Shown: positions 4,653 through 31,341 of the stretch, piece by piece
How the letters are laid out: every line of letters begins with the position of its first letter
How positions within the stretch are numbered: position 1 is the first letter of the stretch
Assembly: GCA_020160975.1 (NCBI GenBank)
Contig: JAIUPJ010000001.1
Coordinates: forward strand, 780,001 to 812,000
DNA from: Candidatus Saccharimonadota bacterium
Lineage (GTDB): Bacteria; Patescibacteriota; Saccharimonadia; Saccharimonadales; Saccharimonadaceae
DNA length: 32,000 nt
Direction: 5' to 3'
Translations under genes and position numbers: made by a program
The notes under the pieces: generated by a model
Told to the model about the DNA's origin: nothing
The model's input: only the letters and a program-made list of their open reading frames with translations
Databases searched by the model: none

Positions 4653-4909
4653 ACGAGAAGCACATTGACACGATAGAATTCGCACTACCACAGGTAGCGA
4701 GGATTCGGGTGTGGAAATTAACAGTTTCAAAAGTGCCTACCTTTATAAGTCGTACGAACGCCGAAATTCACTTTCTTTTATCAATATTACGTAAACCAAG
4801 GTCGACACGCGCGTTCTTTCCCTGCTATAGTGCCGGGAAGTTAAGACAAAACAGGTAGTCGTGCCTCCAGCAATGAGGGCACAGGAGAACGATTATTCGT
4901 AATCAATCC

Positions 4910-6103
4910 ATGGCTCAGGATACCGCAAGAGCCGCAACAATTGAATGTTCATCTGACGATATTCGTCGCTCTGTTCGTAACACACATCACCGCGGATCGG
5001 TTTCGTGGTCAACTATTTCCTCATATTTTGGGGTTTTTCTGCTGATATCATCTTTGGTAGCGATTAGTTACAATCCTCCAATTAAAACACCTGCTGCCAA
5101 CGCACCTGGTGCGACTGCTGTTGCTCAAGCGACACCGCTCAAGGCCGCCAAAGACACTTCTGTTGACCAGCTCATGGCCGCCAACATCGCTGCGGTGGTA
5201 TCTGAGAGTGCCGATATGCCAATTGCCAACAACGCTTCGACGCTGTCGCAGTCACTAACGGTCGAAAGTCTCCTGGCGCAGACCGACACCAACACCATCA
5301 GCAAGCCACAAATTGTCCAGCCGGCGGCAGACAGTCGTACGGCTATCAAATATACGACCGTTGCAGGCGACACCATACCTGCTCTTGCGCAAGAGTACGG
5401 CGTCTCAGCGCAGACGATTAAATGGGCGAATAGCTTGACTTCTGATGCACTCGAGCCTGGCAAAGAAATCTCAATTCCACCAGTTGACGGAGTAGTTTAC
5501 ACCGTGAAAGCGGGTGATACTATCGATTCAATCGCGGCCAAATACAAGGCCGACAAAGACCGTCTGGTAGCCTTTAACGACCTCGAGTTAACTGGTGCGC
5601 TTGCTCCAGGGGCGCAGATAACTATTCCAGGTGGTGATCTGCCCGAAAACGAACGTCCGGGTTATGTAGCGCCTCGCGCTACAACCACCACGACGCGCAA
5701 CACAACAGGGACTGGGACCTATTCTGGCGGCTTTAGCTCTGGCTGGCTAGCTGGTGCGTCTGCGGGCAATCGCTATGGCCTTGGCCAGTGTACTTGGTAT
5801 GCCTACGAGCGTCGTATGCAACTCGGTAGCCCAATTGGTAGTTTCTGGGGCAACGCAAATACCTGGGCATACTCGGGCGCGGCCGCAGGGTTCTTAGTTG
5901 ATGGTAACCCTGCTCCGGGCGCGATTATGCAAAACGGCGGTGGGTATGGCCACGTCGCTATCGTTGAAGCGGTCAATCCCGGTGTCTCTGTCACAATTAG
6001 CGAGATGAATGGCTATCGTTTTGGCGGCGGCTGGAATCGCGTTGGTCACGGAGATATTTCGTGGGGTGAAGCGGTGAGTGGCATGTACCGATATATTCAT
6101 TAA
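4910..6103 (+). CDS. Secreted peptidoglycan hydrolase, 2x LysM + C-terminal CHAP domain
   Basis: N-terminal TM/signal anchor (YFGVFLLISSLVAISY). Two LysM repeats (YTTVAGDTIPALAQEYGVSAQTIKWANSL; YTVKAGDTIDSIAAKYKADKDRLVAFNDL). CHAP-type Cys/His region (GQCTWYAYERR ... GGGYGHVAIVEAV). The start codon is uncertain (see findings). Confidence 0.9.
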   Translation: MAQDTARAATIECSSDDIRRSVRNTHHRGSVSWSTISSYFGVFLLISSLVAISYNPPIKTPAANAPGATAVAQATPLKAAKDTSVDQLMAANIAAVVSESADMPIANNASTLSQSLTVESLLAQTDTNTISKPQIVQPAADSRTAIKYTTVAGDTIPALAQEYGVSAQTIKWANSLTSDALEPGKEISIPPVDGVVYTVKAGDTIDSIAAKYKADKDRLVAFNDLELTGALAPGAQITIPGGDLPENERPGYVAPRATTTTTRNTTGTGTYSGGFSSGWLAGASAGNRYGLGQCTWYAYERRMQLGSPIGSFWGNANTWAYSGAAAGFLVDGNPAPGAIMQNGGGYGHVAIVEAVNPGVSVTISEMNGYRFGGGWNRVGHGDISWGEAVSGMYRYIH

Positions 6104-6738: not shown

Positions 6739-8031
6739 ATGTTTGTCGACACAGCAAAAGTCACAGTCCAAGCGGGTAAAGGCGGCGATGGAGCCGTCAG
6801 TTTTCGTCATGAAATTTATGTCGACAAGGGTGGGCCAGATGGTGGCGACGGCGGACGTGGCGGCGACGTCATCTTTCAGGCGACGGAAAACCTCAACACG
6901 CTGCTCGACTTTCGCTACAAGCCCGAGCTAAAGGCTAGCGATGGCCAGGCTGGCAGCAAGCGCAAAAAAGCCGGGCGTAGCGGCAAGGATTTCATCGTGA
7001 AAGTCCCGCTAGGTACACTAGTCAAGCGTGACGGCGAGACGATCGCTGACTTGACCGAAAATGGCCAAGAAATCGTGATTGCCAAGGGTGGGGACGGCGG
7101 CTTTGGCAACGCGCACTTCAAATCCAGTACTCGCCAGGCTCCAAAAATCGCCGAGCTCGGCGAAATGGGCGATGCCTTTGAGGCCGAGCTTGAGCTGAAA
7201 CTGCTGGCCGATGTCGGGCTGGTGGGCTTCCCAAACGCCGGTAAATCAACATTTCTCTCTGTGGTCAGCAACGCCAAGCCAGAAATCGCCGACTATGCCT
7301 TTACCACACTGACGCCAAACCTAGGGGTTGCAGATATCGACAGCAGCAGCCTACTCATCGCAGACATCCCAGGGTTGATCGAGGGAGCGAGCGAGGGCAA
7401 AGGCCTGGGCGACGCATTCCTGCGCCATGTCGAGCGTACCGCGGTGTTGCTTCACCTCATCGACGTCTATAGCGACGATGTCGCCAAGAGCTACCAGACT
7501 ATCCGGGAAGAGCTTCAGAAATACAGTCCAGAGCTGGCAACTCGACCAGAGGTTGTCGCACTCACGAAGTGCGAAGGACTTGATGACGATATCGTTGCTA
7601 TGCAGCGCGACGAACTCAGCAAGGTGCTGCCGAAAGACACGCCTGTATTTACGATTTCAGCTGCCGCTCACAAAGGACTCACAGAGGTGCTCAGAGCACT
7701 CCAGGCAAAGGTAAGCGAAGTGCGAGCGGTTCAAGCTCTCGAGACTCCAGAGGAAGACGATGAAACCACTGTCATTACTCTCGGTGAAGACCAGCTTTCA
7801 AATCATTGGGAAGTGATATTCGATCAAGAGTTGCAAATCTACCAGGTGTCTGGTGAAAAGATCGAGAAATTTGCTCGTCGCACTAATTATGATAACTACG
7901 AAACTCTCAATCGCCTCCGCGATATCATGCGAAAGCTCGGGATTTATCATGAGTTGACGCGTCAAGGCGCGACGGGTGAGAGCTTGATAAAAATCGGCGA
8001 TTCACCAGAATTTACACTGGTTGAGCAATAG
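6739..8031 (+). CDS. obg: GTPase Obg/CgtA
   Basis: Glycine-rich Obg fold (VQAGKGGDGAVSFRHEIYVDKGGPDGGDGGRGGDVIF). G1 motif GFPNAGKST and G3 motif DIPGLIEGA. The C-terminal OCT-type domain ends ...IKIGDSPEFTLVEQ. Confidence 0.97.
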   Translation: MFVDTAKVTVQAGKGGDGAVSFRHEIYVDKGGPDGGDGGRGGDVIFQATENLNTLLDFRYKPELKASDGQAGSKRKKAGRSGKDFIVKVPLGTLVKRDGETIADLTENGQEIVIAKGGDGGFGNAHFKSSTRQAPKIAELGEMGDAFEAELELKLLADVGLVGFPNAGKSTFLSVVSNAKPEIADYAFTTLTPNLGVADIDSSSLLIADIPGLIEGASEGKGLGDAFLRHVERTAVLLHLIDVYSDDVAKSYQTIREELQKYSPELATRPEVVALTKCEGLDDDIVAMQRDELSKVLPKDTPVFTISAAAHKGLTEVLRALQAKVSEVRAVQALETPEEDDETTVITLGEDQLSNHWEVIFDQELQIYQVSGEKIEKFARRTNYDNYETLNRLRDIMRKLGIYHELTRQGATGESLIKIGDSPEFTLVEQ

Positions 8032-8078: not shown

Positions 8079-8107
8079 TTGACATATAATAAATAATGTG
8101 ATACAAT
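8079..8107 (+). promoter_or_regulatory. Near-consensus sigma70 promoter (TTGACA-17-TGaTACAAT) of the ORF-free unit
   Basis: TTGACA at 8079-8084, 17-nt spacer, TACAAT at 8102-8107, with extended -10 TG at 8099-8100 and AT-rich upstream sequence. No CDS follows for ~670 nt. Confidence 0.65.
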
Positions 8108-8113
8108 GCAATT

Positions 8114-8758
8114 ACGTCACTGAGCAGAGGCGATCGCTTCGCTCATGCTGGCACACCTTAACATGTCAGAGAGAAAGTAAGGATGTTCTTGCGGCTACAA
8201 AGGTATGAAACAGTTCATAGCTTTGTAGCCGTAGGAACACGCGGTTCCGCACACGGATGGTGAAAAATGATTTTTGTTGAAAGGGCAGACGTGCACACGT
8301 CGGGCTTCACCTAGATGCAATCACGAAAAAAGCATCGCAACACTCACTCGCCTTTTGCGAAAGGAATTACTAGTGCGATTCTCTAGCTAATCTAGCGCTG
8401 GTCTCGGCGCGCGCACAAAACGAGACGTTCGTCTGATCCGCGCAAGGATCCTGTGCTTGTGGGACGCGTGCTCATCGTAGTTGAAAGAGACTGTACCTTC
8501 GATATCAATCGAAGCGATGTGTCTTGAATAAACAACGAACACACGCATGTGCTTCTTTTGCACCCATGGGGACAATCACGTGATTGATCCGACACAGTAA
8601 CAACTGAATATGCTTTACGCTTGATGCCTGATGCAGTGGGGCGGAAGTTTGGGATAGATCCCGGCTGTGCAGTATCTGCACGCGACTTCCGCCCCACGTC
8701 GGGCACTTACACTCTCTGACATGTTATATTCTACTTCGCACCCAGCAGGGTGTTTTTT
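8114..8758 (+). ncRNA. Candidate large structured noncoding RNA (or giant structured leader of sbcB), family unknown
   Basis: It is bounded by the promoter at 8079-8107 and the terminator at 8739-8758, with no plus-strand ORF >=60 aa inside. Long-range helix: 8159-8173 pairs with 8712-8726 (15 perfect bp), plus 8177-8181 with 8706-8710 (5 bp). Extended hairpin 8192-8231 (11+6 bp). Three-way junction closed by a 13-bp stem (8636-8648 / 8685-8697). Further perfect hairpins at 8121-8145, 8234-8248, 8259-8311, 8314-8336, 8401-8426, 8435-8450, 8497-8514 and 8573-8586. Confidence 0.45.
8739..8758 (+). terminator. Intrinsic terminator ending the ORF-free unit, 21 nt upstream of sbcB
   Basis: CACCC-AGCA-GGGTG hairpin (8739-8752) followed by T6 (8753-8758). 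Confidence 0.6.
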
Positions 8759-8779
8759 GATATCTGCTAGACTAGAGGT

Positions 8780-10195
8780 ATGGCACAAACCTTTTTCTTC
8801 TACGACCTCGAAACCAGCGGCCTCTCTGCTCGTGAAGATCGCATCATGCAGTTTGCAGGCCAGCGCACTGACATGGAGCTCAATCCTATCGGGGAACCGT
8901 ATAACCTGCTGGTGGCACTCAACGACGACACTTTGCCGAGTCCGGATGCGTTGATGGTGACAGGCATTAGCCCGCAAAAGACACTTGACGAAGGCTACAC
9001 CGAAGCGCAGTTTGCCAAAATACTCCAAGAAGAAATATTTACGGAAGATACGATAACGGTCGGCTTCAATAGTGTGCGATTTGACGATGAGTTCGTACGT
9101 CATCTTTTCTGGCGGAACTTTTACGACCCATACTCGTGGACATGGCGTGACGGTCGTTCGCGTTGGGATTTGCTCGACGTTGTGCGCATGACGCGCGCGC
9201 TCAGACCTGACGGCATAGAGTGGCCGGTTGATAGTGAAGGCAAAGCCACGAATCGTCTCGAGCTGATCACAAAAGCCAACGGTGTGTCACATGCAAATGC
9301 CCACGATGCGCTGAGTGATGTGGTGGCATTGATTGATGTCGCAAAGCTAATCAAGCAGAAGCAACCTCAATTGTTTGACTATCTATTGTCAATGCGTGAC
9401 AAAAAAGCTGTGCAAAAGCTGGTTAATCTCGATAGCAAGCAGCCATTTGTGTATGTCAGTGGCCGCTATGGCAGCGAGTGGAACAAGGCCACCATTGGTT
9501 TTCCGTTGACCAGCGCGCCGAACGGCAATGTAGTGGTATATGATCTGCGCTACGAGCCTACCCAATTTGTTGGGTTGAGCGACAAAGACCTGGCAGCAAA
9601 AATCTTCGCAACATGGGAGGAGCGCAAGGCTGATGATTTCGTCCAGCTGCCAACAAAAGTTCTGCAGTACAACCGCTGTCCGGCCGTGGCGCCGCTTGGC
9701 GTGCTATCGAGTGACGACGGGTGGCAGCGAATTGGACTGGACGAGTCGACTATCAAAAAGCATATGAGCATATTGCTTGCGCACCCAGAATTTGCCGAGC
9801 GCCTGCGGAGCCTCTATGAGCGAAAGAGGGACTATCCGGCAGCAAGCGACCCAGAGGCGCAGCTCTACGATGGCTTTCTGGCAGACCGTGATGCACTACG
9901 GGTTGAGGCGGTTAGAAATGCCAGTGAAAATGAGCTGGCAGACTTTCATCCTGATTTTGCCGATGAGCGACTGCCGTCGTTGCTGTTGCATTACAAGGCC
10001 AGGAATTTCCCCCGTACACTCACCGAAGCCGAAGTTGCCGTATGGGAAGAATGGCGAACAGCACGAATTAATCGCCAATTACCTGGTTTTATGAAATCGC
10101 TCCAACGTATTGCTACGACCGCAGATGAGTCAAAACAGTTTATGCTTGAAGAACTAAAACTCTGGCTTGAATCAGTCATGCCAAGTGAAGACTAG
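8780..10195 (+). CDS. sbcB: Exodeoxyribonuclease I (SbcB, DEDDh 3'-5' ssDNA exonuclease)
   Basis: N-terminal FFFYDLETSGL (ExoI motif), GFNSVRFDDEF (ExoII) and HDALSDV (ExoIII with His). At 471 aa it has ExoI-type C-terminal domains. Confidence 0.9.
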   Translation: MAQTFFFYDLETSGLSAREDRIMQFAGQRTDMELNPIGEPYNLLVALNDDTLPSPDALMVTGISPQKTLDEGYTEAQFAKILQEEIFTEDTITVGFNSVRFDDEFVRHLFWRNFYDPYSWTWRDGRSRWDLLDVVRMTRALRPDGIEWPVDSEGKATNRLELITKANGVSHANAHDALSDVVALIDVAKLIKQKQPQLFDYLLSMRDKKAVQKLVNLDSKQPFVYVSGRYGSEWNKATIGFPLTSAPNGNVVVYDLRYEPTQFVGLSDKDLAAKIFATWEERKADDFVQLPTKVLQYNRCPAVAPLGVLSSDDGWQRIGLDESTIKKHMSILLAHPEFAERLRSLYERKRDYPAASDPEAQLYDGFLADRDALRVEAVRNASENELADFHPDFADERLPSLLLHYKARNFPRTLTEAEVAVWEEWRTARINRQLPGFMKSLQRIATTADESKQFMLEELKLWLESVMPSED

Positions 10196-15256: not shown

Positions 15257-15297
15257 AAATCTGTCGCATGTATATATACATGCGACAGATTTTTATT
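15257..15297. terminator. Bidirectional intrinsic terminator shared by rplY (+) and the ABC exporter (-)
   Basis: A perfect 15-16 bp palindromic hairpin (15257-15272 / 15277-15292, loop TATA) is flanked by an A-run and a T-run. It abuts the ABC exporter stop codon (15293-15295). Confidence 0.8.
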
Positions 15298-17044
15298 CTT
15301 CGATAAATCCTCCTGATTGGTGGTTCCAGAGTTTGGCGTAGGTGCCGTTTTGTGCAAGAAGTTGCTTGTGACTACCGTCTTCGACAATCTTGCCGTGGTC
15401 GAGCACGATGATGCGGTCGAGCTTGGCGATGGTGGATAGACGGTGGGCGATGACGATGCTCGTGCGATCTTTCATCAGAGTTTCGAGACTTTGCTGAATC
15501 AATTTCTCCGACTCGCTATCGAGTGCGCTGGTTGCCTCGTCCAGCACGAGAATTGGTGCATCCTTGAGAATAGCGCGCGCAATCGCAATACGCTGTCGCT
15601 GCCCACCGCTTAGCTTCACGCCACGTTCACCAACGAGCGTATCGAGCCCTTGCGGCAGATTCTCAATAAACTCCCAGGCATTGGCTTTTTTGGCGGCTTC
15701 GGTGATTTCGGCTTCGGTTGCATCTGGCTTGCCGTAGGCGATATTTTCGGACAATGGACGATGGAACAATACTGATTCTTGCGGTACATAGGCGATAGAC
15801 TGACGCAGGCTCTCCTGTGTTACCTTCGCAATGTCTTGCCCATCGATCACAATTTTTCCGCTATCAATATCGGAGAAGCGTAGAAGTAGACTAGTGAAGG
15901 TCGTTTTGCCTGAACCACTATGACCGACAAGCCCCACTCGTTGACCGGGCTTGATGTGGAGGGAAAAGGCATCAAAAACATGCTCACCCTTACCCTTGTC
16001 GTGGGTGAAGTCAATGGACTCGAATGCTATATCACCAGCAGTTGGCGACAGTCTTCGAGAGGTATGGTCAGTGAGTGCATAGTCACTCCCCAGTATTTCT
16101 ACCATGTCGTACGAGTCGCCCATGATGCGGTTATAATTACGCATGATGTTGTTCATTTCCCATAACTGTCGCGAGACCGTGAGCGTAAAGGTGAGGAGAA
16201 GATATACAGTACCGATTGAAATGAAACGGTGTTCGCTGGCATACACAGCCGCAATGATTGCGCCACCACTTACGACGACGAGTAAGCTCGAATAAACAGT
16301 ACTGACTTTTAGAAAGCCCCACATCGATGCTAGAGAAGTACCTCGCCACGTGTTGGCGTGTAGCTTGCTACGCGTGAACTCAGTTTTCTCATTGCCAAAT
16401 GCCTTTACTGCGACGATGTTGCTCACCATATCTGCCAGGTAGCCGCTTAGCTTGGTCGAAGCTTGTGCTTCGCGGGTATTGAGCTCACGCATAAAACTAG
16501 AGCCGCGGTACACTGCGATTGCAAAGACGATAGTTACCGCCAAGATAAATAATGCGTAGGGAAGAAAATAAAAACTGCTAATGATGACGGTGGCGATGAT
16601 CGTTACAAGCACAGGAGTTGCTTGCCAAATGATGGTATCCCAGAATCGCTCAAACCCACCAGTCAGCTTATTTGTCTGACTCACAAGCGATCCGCCAAAT
16701 CGATTGGCGTGGAAGTTCAGACTTTCGTGAGAGAGTTTTTTGAATACGTCAGTATAGATGTCGCGTTGTGCACTAACTTGAAAAGACCATGTTACATAAA
16801 GAGCAAGTCGCCAGAAGATAACCTCGCCAAGTAGTTGAGTCACAATATACCAGACAATAACTGGCCATGTGTTTGCCACCGTGGCGTCGCCAGCCTGGAT
16901 AAGGTTGAACACGTGAGAGAGTAGCAATGGGCCGGCGAACGCATTGCTGAGTACCGCAAGCACTGGAAACAATACGGCAAGAAAACGCCGAATTTTGTAG
17001 GGCTTAGAATAGTGCCAAAATAATTTGAGGGTATTTTTTTGCAT
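15293..17044 (-). CDS. ABC exporter, fused permease/ATPase (MsbA/type I exporter-like)
   Basis: N-terminal 6-TM domain. Walker A GHSGSGKTT, signature LSGGQRQRIAIARA, Walker B ILVLDEATSALD. Strong SD (AAAGGAGG). Confidence 0.93.
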   Translation of the reverse strand: MQKNTLKLFWHYSKPYKIRRFLAVLFPVLAVLSNAFAGPLLLSHVFNLIQAGDATVANTWPVIVWYIVTQLLGEVIFWRLALYVTWSFQVSAQRDIYTDVFKKLSHESLNFHANRFGGSLVSQTNKLTGGFERFWDTIIWQATPVLVTIIATVIISSFYFLPYALFILAVTIVFAIAVYRGSSFMRELNTREAQASTKLSGYLADMVSNIVAVKAFGNEKTEFTRSKLHANTWRGTSLASMWGFLKVSTVYSSLLVVVSGGAIIAAVYASEHRFISIGTVYLLLTFTLTVSRQLWEMNNIMRNYNRIMGDSYDMVEILGSDYALTDHTSRRLSPTAGDIAFESIDFTHDKGKGEHVFDAFSLHIKPGQRVGLVGHSGSGKTTFTSLLLRFSDIDSGKIVIDGQDIAKVTQESLRQSIAYVPQESVLFHRPLSENIAYGKPDATEAEITEAAKKANAWEFIENLPQGLDTLVGERGVKLSGGQRQRIAIARAILKDAPILVLDEATSALDSESEKLIQQSLETLMKDRTSIVIAHRLSTIAKLDRIIVLDHGKIVEDGSHKQLLAQNGTYAKLWNHQSGGFIEE

Positions 17045-17207
17045 GAGCCTCCTTTAGGGATATCTGCATAAATTAACGGTTGCTTGGTGTTTATTTCGCC
17101 AGCGGTCTAGCTCGTCAAGACGTCCGCGAGTAGAGGAACCACGAATGGTTCATAGTAGTACTAGTTTACTACAGGGTTTTATGAGAGTGCAATAGGATAA
17201 TCATTTT

Positions 17208-29679: not shown

Positions 29680-31341
29680 ATGAGGGCGTTCGCATCCAAG
29701 TTCGGGGTGAATACTAAAAAGCATACACAGGCCAAATTGTGGCAACGCATAGCAACGCTACTAACAGCGTTTGTTGTGATGAGTAGCGCGCTGGCGCAGG
29801 TAGCACAGGCGGCGCCAGGTGATTACGTGTGGCAGAAGGCGGGGACGAATCTGAGCGGAGACCAGAGCTACTGGCAATCCACCGCCATCTCCAGCGACGG
29901 CACGAAACTCGCGGCGGTCGTGTCGGGCGGCTTCATCTACACCTCGTCCGACTCCGGCGCTACCTGGACGGAGCGCACCGCCGCCGGCTCGCGTTACTGG
30001 CAATCCATCGCCATCTCCAGCGACGGCAGCAAGCTCGCGGCGGTTGTGTCGGGCGGCTTCATCTACACCTCATCCGACTCCGGCGCTACCTGGACGGAGC
30101 GCACCGCCGCCGGCTCGCGTGGCTGGCAATCCATCGCCAGCTCCAGCGACGGCACGAAGCTCGCCGCGGTTGACTATGGCGGCTTCGTCTACACCTCATC
30201 CGATTCCGGTGCCACCTGGACGGAGCAAACCGCCGCCGGCTCGCGTTACTGGTACTCCATTGCCAGCTCTAGCGACGGCAGCAAGCTCGCCGCGGTCGTG
30301 TCGGGCGGCTCCGTCTACACCTCATCCGATTCCGGTGCCACCTGGACGGAGCAAACCGCCGCCGGCTCGCGTAGCTGGTACTCCATCGCTAGCTCCAGCG
30401 ACGGCAGCAAGCTCGCCGCGGTCGTTTGGGGCGGCTCCGTCTACACTTCGTCCGATTCCGGCGCCACTTGGACGGAGCAAACCGTCGCCGGCTCGCGTGA
30501 CTGGCAATCCATCGCCAGCTCTAGCGACGGCAGCAAGCTCGCGGCGGTCGTCTATGGCGGCTCCCTCTACACCTCATCAAATTCCGGCGCCACCTGGAAG
30601 CAAGAGACCCCGCCGAGCCGTAGCTGGATGTCTGTCGTGATGTCTACTGACGGGTCCAGGCTGGCAGTGGCAGCCGAAGCTGGCAACATCTACCTCGCCA
30701 GCAAGGAGGGTCCCGCCACCGCCACAGTCGCTATGCCTAGCCTCCCAGCCGGCAGCAAGGATGTCACGGCAGCTCCAGCCATCGCCGGTGCTAGTCTTTC
30801 CGCTACTTCCATGAGCTGCTACACGCTGGCACCAGGTACCACTACAACCTATGGCCCCGACAGCCTCACCGTGCCGGAGCAGGGTGTCAACCTATTGGGC
30901 GGCATCGGCTTCAAGCTGACCTGCACCGACACTGGCGGCACCGCCAACACGGCCGTCACCCTGGGAACCGCATACAATGATGCCTCTGCACTCCGCGTCT
31001 ACAAACGCAGCGGCACCGGCCCACTCGTTGACATCACAGAACAGGTTACCATCCAAAACGAGACCGTGGCTGGCGCCACTAAGACGGTCATCCGCTACAA
31101 CCTGGTCGACGGCGGCAGCCTTGACGAAGACGGCACAGCCGACGGCACCATCACTGACCCCATCTACATCGGCGTGATGAACAGTGCAGCAACGACCACT
31201 CCAGGAGCGGCAGGCGGCTCGCTCGCCAGCACCGGCTTGAATGTTTATGTGCTCCTTGCTCTTGCTGCCACGTTACTCACGAGTGCAACCGTAATCTGGC
31301 GTAAAAGCGTTAAGATACCAAAACGCGAATCGTTTAGATAA
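29680..31341 (+). CDS. Sortase-anchored (LAxTG) surface protein with 7-blade BNR/Asp-box beta-propeller
   Basis: Signal peptide (...SSALAQVAQA|AP). Seven ~42-aa blades each carry SSDGxKLAAV plus the Asp-box SSDSGATW. There is a ~190-aa C-terminal domain. The sorting signal is LASTG (31222-31236), a hydrophobic helix and a basic tail (RKSVKIPKRESFR). The gene is strongly GC-rich with GC3-biased codons. Confidence 0.85.
   Translation: MRAFASKFGVNTKKHTQAKLWQRIATLLTAFVVMSSALAQVAQAAPGDYVWQKAGTNLSGDQSYWQSTAISSDGTKLAAVVSGGFIYTSSDSGATWTERTAAGSRYWQSIAISSDGSKLAAVVSGGFIYTSSDSGATWTERTAAGSRGWQSIASSSDGTKLAAVDYGGFVYTSSDSGATWTEQTAAGSRYWYSIASSSDGSKLAAVVSGGSVYTSSDSGATWTEQTAAGSRSWYSIASSSDGSKLAAVVWGGSVYTSSDSGATWTEQTVAGSRDWQSIASSSDGSKLAAVVYGGSLYTSSNSGATWKQETPPSRSWMSVVMSTDGSRLAVAAEAGNIYLASKEGPATATVAMPSLPAGSKDVTAAPAIAGASLSATSMSCYTLAPGTTTTYGPDSLTVPEQGVNLLGGIGFKLTCTDTGGTANTAVTLGTAYNDASALRVYKRSGTGPLVDITEQVTIQNETVAGATKTVIRYNLVDGGSLDEDGTADGTITDPIYIGVMNSAATTTPGAAGGSLASTGLNVYVLLALAATLLTSATVIWRKSVKIPKRESFR
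29869..30711 (+). repeat. In-frame 126-bp tandem repeats (6 near-identical units + 1 degenerate)
   Basis: Units start at 29869, 29995, 30121, 30247, 30373 and 30499 (the last is 123 bp). A degenerate seventh unit spans 30622-30711. Units 1 and 2 differ at only a handful of nucleotides. Confidence 0.9.

Follow-up and report, generated by a model that had tools for sequence, protein, structure and literature searches.

Results

A candidate ORF-free transcription unit between obg and sbcB

The window analyzed here is a stretch of 32,000 nucleotides (nt) of DNA from a Candidatus Saccharimonadota bacterium (contig JAIUPJ010000001.1, positions 780,001 to 812,000). Between the genes obg and sbcB, it carries on its plus strand a candidate gene for a large structured RNA, which is the subject of this work. 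Positions refer to the window unless they follow a locus number such as L091. The obg stop codon is at 8031 and the sbcB ATG at 8780, leaving a gap of 748 nt. Plus-strand open reading frames (ORFs) inside this gap have at most 38 amino acids (aa), barring 8667..8954, which runs out of frame into sbcB. A preliminary description of the sequence had named a 748-nt spacer without a credible plus-strand ORF, and the ORF listing bears this out. Three minus-strand ORFs of 62, 104, and 162 aa were absent from that description. No Pfam match was obtained for nine ORFs from both strands, these three included, and the 104-aa ORF has zero homologues among 5.8 billion proteins.

The unit opens with a sigma-70-type promoter at 8079-8107 (TTGACA, 17 nt, and TG-n-TACAAT), which matches the consensus at 11 of 12 positions and contains the TG of an extended -10 element, as the preliminary description had it. 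The transcript is predicted to start near 8114. It would end at an intrinsic terminator at 8738-8758, where the hairpin GCACCC-AGCA-GGGTGT (8738-8753) is followed by T6; this element had also been recognized before.

Between these signals, minimum free energy (MFE) folds place a 5' hairpin, P1, at 8116-8152. It is followed by the 5' arm of a long-range helix, P2, at 8159-8181, whose 3' arm lies at 8706-8726. The 15 bp formed by 8159-8173 and 8712-8726 are 100% complementary, and five additional base pairs between GTAAG (8177-8181) and CTTAC (8706-8710) are seen in the MFE fold, so that the closing helix of 15+5 bp was recovered as first drawn. P3 is a near-perfect long hairpin at 8184-8239 with 26-nt arms (8184-8209 and 8214-8239) of 88% complementarity; a hairpin proposed earlier at 8192-8231 is contained within it. 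The interior (8240-8635) is strongly structured, hypervariable, and unalignable with other alleles. In the 3' domain (8636-8697), a G-rich stem of 13 bp, GTGGGGCGGAAGT / ACTTCCGCCCCAC, closes a three-way junction with two small hairpins. The two strands of this stem (8636-8648 and 8685-8697) are 100% complementary, in agreement with the earlier drawing.

The MFE of 8114-8758 is -261.5 kcal/mol compared with -196.8 ± 6.0 kcal/mol for dinucleotide shuffles (z = -10.75), and the minus strand of the same segment gives z = -8.7. Eight further short hairpins are present in the window MFE fold. Every copy of the window allele is at least 99.3% identical to it, and as the copies differ at no more than five positions, they are uninformative on the interior helices. 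Just 5' of the G-rich stem, the heptamer GCTTGAT occurs in two copies in the window (8619-8634) and in at least four copies at the contig end of L109 (1-30). This repeat may be a slippage-prone tract.

Homologous loci in Saccharibacteria

We used SbcB as a handle and surveyed the sbcB neighborhoods of 80 Saccharibacteria species and several metagenomic relatives. The relatives of SbcB are annotated as Candidatus Saccharimonas or Saccharibacteria. Linkage of obg and sbcB is widely conserved among the 80 species with spacers of 22 nt to 2.8 kb, and ORFs occupy most of the long ones. Sequence search recovered close relatives only, in L091, L011, L115, and L121, together with a 3' fragment in L109/L110. 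Distant members came to light when ORF-free spacers were folded and screened for a long-range inverted repeat with a terminator behind it. This yielded L012, L058, L083, L065, L081, L085, L088, and two tandem copies in L080. L057, whose sequence contains Ns, is a probable member. Hence, the homologues sought at obg-sbcB loci exist: there are at least 12 in other Saccharibacteria, and the window and 12 loci with the full feature set make up the 13 members compared below.

The RNA is carried by 10-11 of the 80 species. It adjoins obg or sbcB or both in all carriers, at SbcB identities of 67-100%. In L065, L085, and L088, obg is not located 5' of the RNA, and the RNA stayed beside sbcB. The genes 5' of the RNA at these three loci are type IV pilin-like in L065:624-1142 and L088:10-804 (N-terminal GFTIVEL...) and uncharacterized ORFs in L085:24-2097. 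Nanosynbacter-type genomes are without the RNA, and their gaps measure 22-58 nt.

No sequence resembling the RNA was found by BLASTN in phage and plasmid collections. A metagenome scan with the conserved terminator 19-mer returned 12 loci with no other similarity and no obg or sbcB gene, and a scan of viral contigs for the conserved 18-mer GATCGGTACATTGACAAG produced a single match, which lies in a phage ORF; both results were rejected as chance matches. As far as sampled, the family appears confined to a subset of Saccharibacteria.

A conserved frame with compensatory changes

The members share one order of elements: promoter, P1, P2 5' arm, P3, interior, G-rich stem, P2 3' arm, pyrimidine-rich linker, and terminator. 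The pair of TTGACA and extended -10 lies 5' of nearly every homologue, with a weaker -35 in L083 (CTTGCA). A P1 hairpin is found at the same place in 13 of 13 members, and the motif GAGGTG...CCCTGATCGGTAC is partly conserved in the more distant ones. When MAFFT and RNAalifold were applied to P1 and the spliced frame, the alignment was too poor and 0 pairs were predicted for P1. P2 starts with a conserved ATTGACAAG or ATTAACATG. Directly 3' of its 5' arm, every member has P3 as a hairpin of 18-26 bp, the sequence of which is different each time. The mismatches in P3 are mainly plus-strand G·U pairs, and some arms keep ancestral traces (GCTACA(A/G) in the window, L065, and L080b). The interior measures 196-727 nt across members. 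The G-rich 3' stem (GGTGGGG...CCCCACC) has 11-21 bp in all members but L012 (best 7 bp). In four of them (the window, L091, L115, and L109), a three-way junction is closed by it. The terminator lies 6-30 nt 3' of P2 in all members, and the linker in between is pyrimidine-rich. By this comparison, the family is characterized by its own putative promoter and terminator and by the frame of P1, P2, P3, and 3' stem.

The cognate arms of P2 pair over 12-21 consecutive bp in the 13 members; 154 non-cognate combinations average 6.9 bp. The helix alignments were built from structure. For P2, the register alignment was anchored on the conserved 5' motif, and the partners were shuffled 500 times. In this alignment, 87.8% of the cells are paired compared with 62.8% after shuffling. 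Taking the 3' segments in register with the helix inflates this percentage but leaves the variety of pair types unaffected. Covariation scored 0.753 compared with 0.227, and 0 of 500 shuffles reach the observed values. Ten of 13 pairs changed on both sides, and slid controls were paired at 20-38%. For the 3' domain of five close members, RNAalifold predicted an 11-bp stem with five compensatory pairs in which the outermost pair alone is broken; the terminator of the same members was predicted with one compensatory pair. Thus, compensatory changes, which had been suggested as a check of the proposed structure, are found both in the closing helix and in the 3' stem (five of 11 pairs).

All 13 members fold far better than shuffled sequences, with z-values from -4.7 to -14.7. 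Folding energy alone, however, was not decisive for the strand, which was settled by the kind of mismatches. P2, P3, and the 3' stem of the 13 members together contain 656 Watson-Crick pairs, 40 plus-strand G·U pairs, and 9 A·C pairs, and the excess of G·U over A·C is significant (one-sided binomial p ~5e-6). Three substitutions in helices between L080b and L116 are all C-to-U, each creating a G·U pair. As DNA palindromes or protein-binding repeats should be symmetric in this respect, the G·U excess points to selection on the plus-strand RNA. Judged from these alignments, the frame is maintained by compensatory change on that RNA.

Hypervariable interior and exchange of alleles

Between the interiors of the members, no significant similarity was found. 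L121 belongs to the species of the window: the 4.2 kb that comprise sbcB and the region downstream are 98.4% identical, and obg is 94.7% identical. The RNA it carries is nevertheless the allele of L091 (13 differences over 471 nt), and the flanking genes of L091 and L121 are only 80-85% identical. Homology between the window and L121 ends at 8175 and restarts at 8710, which corresponds to the P2 arms. In L080b and L116, the flanks are near-identical over 255 nt 5' and ~200 nt 3' of a 190-nt center that is wholly replaced. L085 has an internal duplicated module. These comparisons show an interior that is hypervariable and exchanged between strains and species. Divergent alleles within a species that are shared across species are typical of loci under diversifying or balancing selection, and the interior of the RNA may be subject to selection of this type.

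Ribosome-binding signals in the interior

A strict Shine-Dalgarno sequence (SD; AGGAG or GGAGG) followed by an ATG 3-8 nt further on is present in five of 13 interiors, where 1.1 are expected; two of 1000 shuffles reach this number, and the minus-strand control gives one. The first SD-ATG sites are located 77-158 nt into the interior, just after P3. In L080b, L057, L058, L091, and L012, the sequence CAGGAG(A/G)AAAnCCATG is conserved. The site in the window is weak (GGTGA at 8259-8263, 3 nt, ATG at 8267) and does not comply with the strict pattern. The ORF which begins there (8267-8314) has 15 codons and encodes a hydrophilic peptide, MIFVERADVHTSGFT.

The ORFs behind the SD-ATG sites range from 4 to 108 codons and have no sequence in common. 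Those of L091/L121 (MQFM*) and L011 (MTLL*) have only four codons, and the ORF of L012 meets no stop codon before the end of the transcript and continues past the terminator. The sole ORF of any member that resembles a real protein is that of L080b, which encodes 108 aa with a signal peptide and a conserved C-terminus. A homologue with 49% identity occurs at the same place in the contigs L116-L120, the flanks of which are near-identical to L080. These secreted proteins of 108-111 aa (L080:2512-2838 and L116:511-846) lie inside the RNA frame; the signal peptide and the C-terminal 25 residues are identical, and the central ~190 nt are replaced. We considered inserts derived from actinobacterial hosts in the GC-rich interiors, which was unsupported, as the one homologue of the L080b ORF is found in contigs of the same arrangement. 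The SD-ATG sites are treated here as an unexplained feature of the family, and a peptide-centered function fits the window allele poorly.

A putative promoter of sbcB

Outside the RNA, sbcB is preceded by an extended -10 element of its own (TG-c-TAGACT, plus strand; TG at 8765-8766, TAGACT at 8768-8773), which ends 6 nt before the ATG at 8780. The pattern TGnTAnnnT is present within 50 nt 5' of sbcB in 55 of 80 species, and in 50 of 80 exactly 6 nt separate its end from the ATG. It mostly reads TGCTATACT and is found with or without the RNA, including species in which obg is only 22-50 nt away. A consensus match at this distance argues for a leaderless sbcB mRNA from a putative promoter of its own. 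Hence, sbcB is probably leaderless, and the RNA is probably not the sbcB leader.

Comparison with known RNA families

Rfam 15, whose models include OLE, GOLLD, ROOL, raiA, RNase P, 6S, SRP, and group I/II introns, gave no match at gathering score in 8079-8758. When the threshold was relaxed to E <= 10, only chance hairpin matches of 12-19 bits appeared in this region, compared with cut-offs of 49-104. The 13 homologous loci did not match either, and two of them gave chance-level hairpins at E <= 5. Overall, the chance hairpin matches had E-values of 0.08-5 and scored far below the gathering scores. The model for RNase P RNA found no match in the window region even at E <= 10. RNase P RNA is also disfavored by the absence or decay of the element in the close relatives L107 and L094. 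ARAGORN detected no tRNA or tmRNA in the region or in the 13 homologous loci; its only hits were a tRNA-Leu and a tRNA-Cys at the far end of the window. With these results, the statement that the RNA is none of RNase P, tmRNA, signal recognition particle RNA, or 6S RNA stands, and the Rfam check proposed at the outset returned no family. A literature search for a large RNA at obg/sbcB described from Saccharibacteria or the candidate phyla radiation was also negative.

The spacer as an insertion hot spot and other features of the window

In the loci compared (L011-L123), the obg-sbcB spacer is an insertion hot spot with lineage-specific cargo. A module of DUF350 and a glutathionylspermidine-synthase-like gene is present in L011, L092-L094, and L107, and a bAvd-like gene for a four-helix bundle in L112-L114. 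Other cargo comprises ORFs of 310-350 aa and an ORF of 160 aa in L109 and L115. In L094, a remnant of the RNA unit is located at 2055-2180. Its promoter is degenerate, with CTGACA as the -35 and no clear -10, and so is its P1; the terminator persists, and P2, P3, and the interior have been lost. In L107, a different ORF-free stretch of 587 nt (1622-2208) lies between obg and the DUF350 gene. It is also exceptionally structured (z = -9.4 for the plus and -10.5 for the minus strand), and its ends pair in a long helix; it shares no similarity with the window RNA. Possibly, the hot spot thus contains another structured element, to which L011:757-1056 may be related. In L061, another Saccharibacteria species, two perfect inverted repeats lie nested 5' of obg (1046-1562), one of 27 bp (1046-1072/1536-1562) and one of 35 bp (1155-1189/1357-1391).

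The housekeeping neighbors of the RNA in the window encode a PilM/FtsA-like protein, YceG, a LysM-CHAP hydrolase, Obg, exonuclease I, and UvrA. Further housekeeping genes around it encode a VTT-domain protein, L25, ABC and MMPL transporters, and UvrC. Judged from the domains of the large ORFs, there is no reverse transcriptase, integrase, transposase, or invertase among the genes of the 32-kb window. The TM7-specific lysM-TM7 motif of Rfam is found at 4735-4887 (plus strand, 78.9 bits), directly 5' of the LysM-CHAP hydrolase gene (4910-6103). An MDR-NUDIX motif at 17096-17156 (minus strand, 68.3 bits) is located 5' of a minus-strand ABC transporter gene (15293-17044). Six tandem repeats of 126 nt (42 codons) occupy 29743-30672 within a 553-aa ORF (29680-31341) that has BNR/Asp-box repeat matches.

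Discussion

Interpretation of the element

We propose, with moderate confidence, that ~8114-8758 on the plus strand is an independent gene for a large structured RNA of ~645 nt, which belongs to an undescribed family of Saccharibacteria and is always located in the obg-sbcB interval. The preliminary suggestion of an undescribed large structured RNA is supported by the covarying helices and by the lack of any Rfam, tRNA, tmRNA, or protein match. The genomes of the candidate phyla radiation are tiny and have scarce non-coding DNA. That 300-850 nt are kept behind a near-consensus promoter in such genomes argues for a function.

Several observations weigh against this proposal. The RNA is dispensable, as it is missing from most of the 80 species; L107 has another sequence in its place, and L094 has retained only P1 and the terminator. 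As only loci linked to obg or sbcB were sampled, the fixed position may partly reflect the sampling. The promoter and terminator of the RNA are matches to consensus sequences only. In four of 13 members, the minus strand folds as stably as the plus strand or more so. The helices in the interior of the window RNA are without comparative support, and in near-identical copies of the allele, four to five substitutions fail to preserve the MFE pairs. The function is pure inference, with no partner protein or target found. Finally, the SD-ATG enrichment and the real 108-aa ORF of L080b keep a coding function under consideration.

Alternative explanations

The last point leads to a structured mRNA, the frame of which would form the 5' and 3' untranslated regions that clamp and stabilize the message; the functional product would be a peptide or secreted protein that is small and evolves fast. 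We consider this unlikely. It would explain why strict SD-ATG sites are located just after P3 on the plus strand in five of 13 interiors, why their sequence is conserved in five loci, and why the 108-aa protein of L080b has a signal peptide and a homologue in L116-L120. The shortest member, L012, holds little beyond P3, the SD-ATG, and the 3' hairpin, and such an mRNA would resemble the type I toxin mRNAs with pairing between the 5' and 3' ends over a long range. However, nothing is shared among ORFs of 4-108 codons, the L012 ORF lacks a stop codon inside the transcript, and no peptide is hydrophobic in the manner of a toxin. In L091/L121 and L011, the ORF has just four codons, yet 97% of the L091 allele is kept between species with flanks of only 80-85% identity. 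In the window, a weak SD-ATG and a hydrophilic ORF of 15 aa are followed by 400 nt of strongly structured sequence. The RNA could also act in cis as a very large leader or attenuator that controls read-through into sbcB, an alternative named in the preliminary description. The terminator lies 20-60 nt 5' of the sbcB ATG on the same strand in the window and nine members, and the RNA is found beside sbcB even where obg is not upstream (L065, L085, L088). Against this stand the separate extended -10 of sbcB, which occurs in 50 of 80 species regardless of the RNA, and other genes between the RNA and sbcB in three lineages (L011, L115, L012). Two tandem copies in L080 do not fit a leader either, and a hypervariable sensor domain is unexpected for one that binds a ligand. 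In every fold, P2 separates the interior from the terminator, and no obvious antiterminator is seen, although no systematic antiterminator search was made. A leader function is therefore highly improbable.

Two further readings were considered. In one, the segment is a DNA-level element such as a miniature inverted-repeat transposable element (MITE), an invertible segment, or a recombination cassette; the P2 arms would be inverted repeats bound by a protein and the RNA fold incidental. Perfect 15-bp inverted repeats do bound the segment, the breakpoints of allele replacement coincide with them, and L094 keeps P1 and the terminator with nothing between. Moreover, TTGACAAG, which forms the outer portion of the repeat, keeps its sequence even in L085 and L088, where it is unpaired, and the spacer is an insertion hot spot. 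Such an element nonetheless seems very unlikely to us because the mismatches are strand-biased (40 G·U vs 9 A·C), every SD-ATG lies on the plus strand, and the ten assemblies that carry the window allele are all co-linear, in the same orientation. The 32-kb window contains no second copy of the element and no gene for a transposase, integrase, or invertase, and there is no target-site duplication. Promoter and terminator are conserved along with the element. It occupies one conserved interval across species with SbcB down to 67% identical, and the same interval across such deep divergence fits vertical descent. In the other reading, a decayed pseudogene or non-functional spacer folds well by chance. 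The absence of the RNA from most Saccharibacteria, its decay in L094, and the assorted cargo of the hot spot would be compatible with this. The homologous loci, however, align to no protein gene, none of the nine ORFs on both strands matches Pfam, and the 104-aa ORF is without a homologue. The 13 members have kept the architecture, promoter, and terminator, with compensatory changes, and z-values of -5 to -15 are far beyond the shuffled range. Decay or chance is hardly credible as an explanation.

Proposed mode of action and significance

For an independent RNA gene, our best guess is a product that is stable and acts in trans, with a frame that shields its diversifying core and presents it. 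Both ends would be hidden by P1, the P2 clamp, and the terminator hairpin, which may result in a long-lived, abundant RNA. P2 and P3 are long enough for RNase III, so the core may be released by processing, in the way rRNA is cut out of its flanking stems. The variable interior would be the working part, diversifying under a changing partner such as a phage, the host, or kin and competing strains. Ribosomes may load at the SD-ATG after P3 in many members, which may stabilize or remodel the RNA. As the peptide is unconserved despite the SD-ATG, some members may be dual-function. A bolder reading would be a variable cassette: a nuclease-resistant frame that displays, or releases by RNase III, a hypervariable RNA, in some lineages with a secreted peptide, and whose payload would be under diversifying selection and traded horizontally between Saccharibacteria. 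In this specific form, the proposal is distinctly unlikely. We know of no bacterial RNA family that works as such a cassette. If true, the RNA would be a determinant of the interaction with phage, actinobacterial host, or kin in an epibiotic bacterium with a very small genome.

Bacteria rarely yield a new family of large structured RNAs, and OLE, GOLLD, ROOL, raiA, and HEARO have each opened structural or mechanistic biology. The unusual mix found here consists of a covarying frame, an unalignable core, exchange of alleles across species, and a conserved ribosome-binding signal that lacks a conserved peptide. These combined features point to diversifying selection on an RNA. Some Saccharibacteria can now be cultivated and transformed, and the idea is testable in them. 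The locus also offers two clean, testable cases: a promoter of sbcB that is probably leaderless, and the obg-sbcB spacer as a hot spot of recombination.

Comparison with known systems

With riboswitch and T-box leaders, the unit has the order of promoter, structured RNA, intrinsic terminator, and same-strand downstream gene in common. It is unlike them in that sbcB has a promoter-like element of its own and probably lacks a leader, the interior is unconserved, and tandem copies and intervening genes occur. The type I toxin mRNAs of the hok "fbi" and Helicobacter aapA kind also have a long-range clamp between 5' and 3' ends, and many members of the window family resemble them in having an SD-ATG with a short ORF. 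In contrast to these mRNAs, the transcripts of the window family are two to four times larger and have no conserved or hydrophobic peptide, and no antisense RNA gene was identified at its loci.

In the msr-msd of retrons, inverted repeats similar in position to a1/a2 bracket a structured RNA with a long variable hairpin, and strain diversity is high, as in the window family. Retrons differ by their reverse transcriptase, which is neither adjacent nor present in the 32-kb window, and the window RNA is far larger. The neighbors encode Obg and exonuclease I, and we take the likeness to retrons as a resemblance only. Precursor stems of rRNA and the intervening sequences of 23S rRNA also form long, near-perfect helices from the sequences flanking a large interior, and in size, P2 (15-21 bp) and P3 (20-26 bp) would suit RNase III as substrates. 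The window locus has no rRNA context; the analogy concerns the mechanism only, with RNase III cleavage being putative.

The large "ornate" RNAs OLE, GOLLD, ROOL, raiA, and HEARO, whose functions are at most partly known, are similar in length (300-850 nt), in their many helices, and in being stand-alone genes with their own promoter and terminator. They also have a narrow phylogenetic range and were found through long ORF-free intergenic regions. The window family is not linked to prophages or tRNAs and gave no covariance-model match. The published consensus structures of these RNAs have conserved cores. In the preliminary description, the RNA was likened to the OLE/GOLLD/ROOL/raiA class, which holds for the size and fails for the conserved core, since only P1, P2, P3, the 3' stem, and the terminator are conserved. 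With a hypervariable interior, the likeness to OLE, GOLLD, and ROOL is one of size only, and what sets the window family apart is that it conserves the peripheral frame and exchanges the core between strains.

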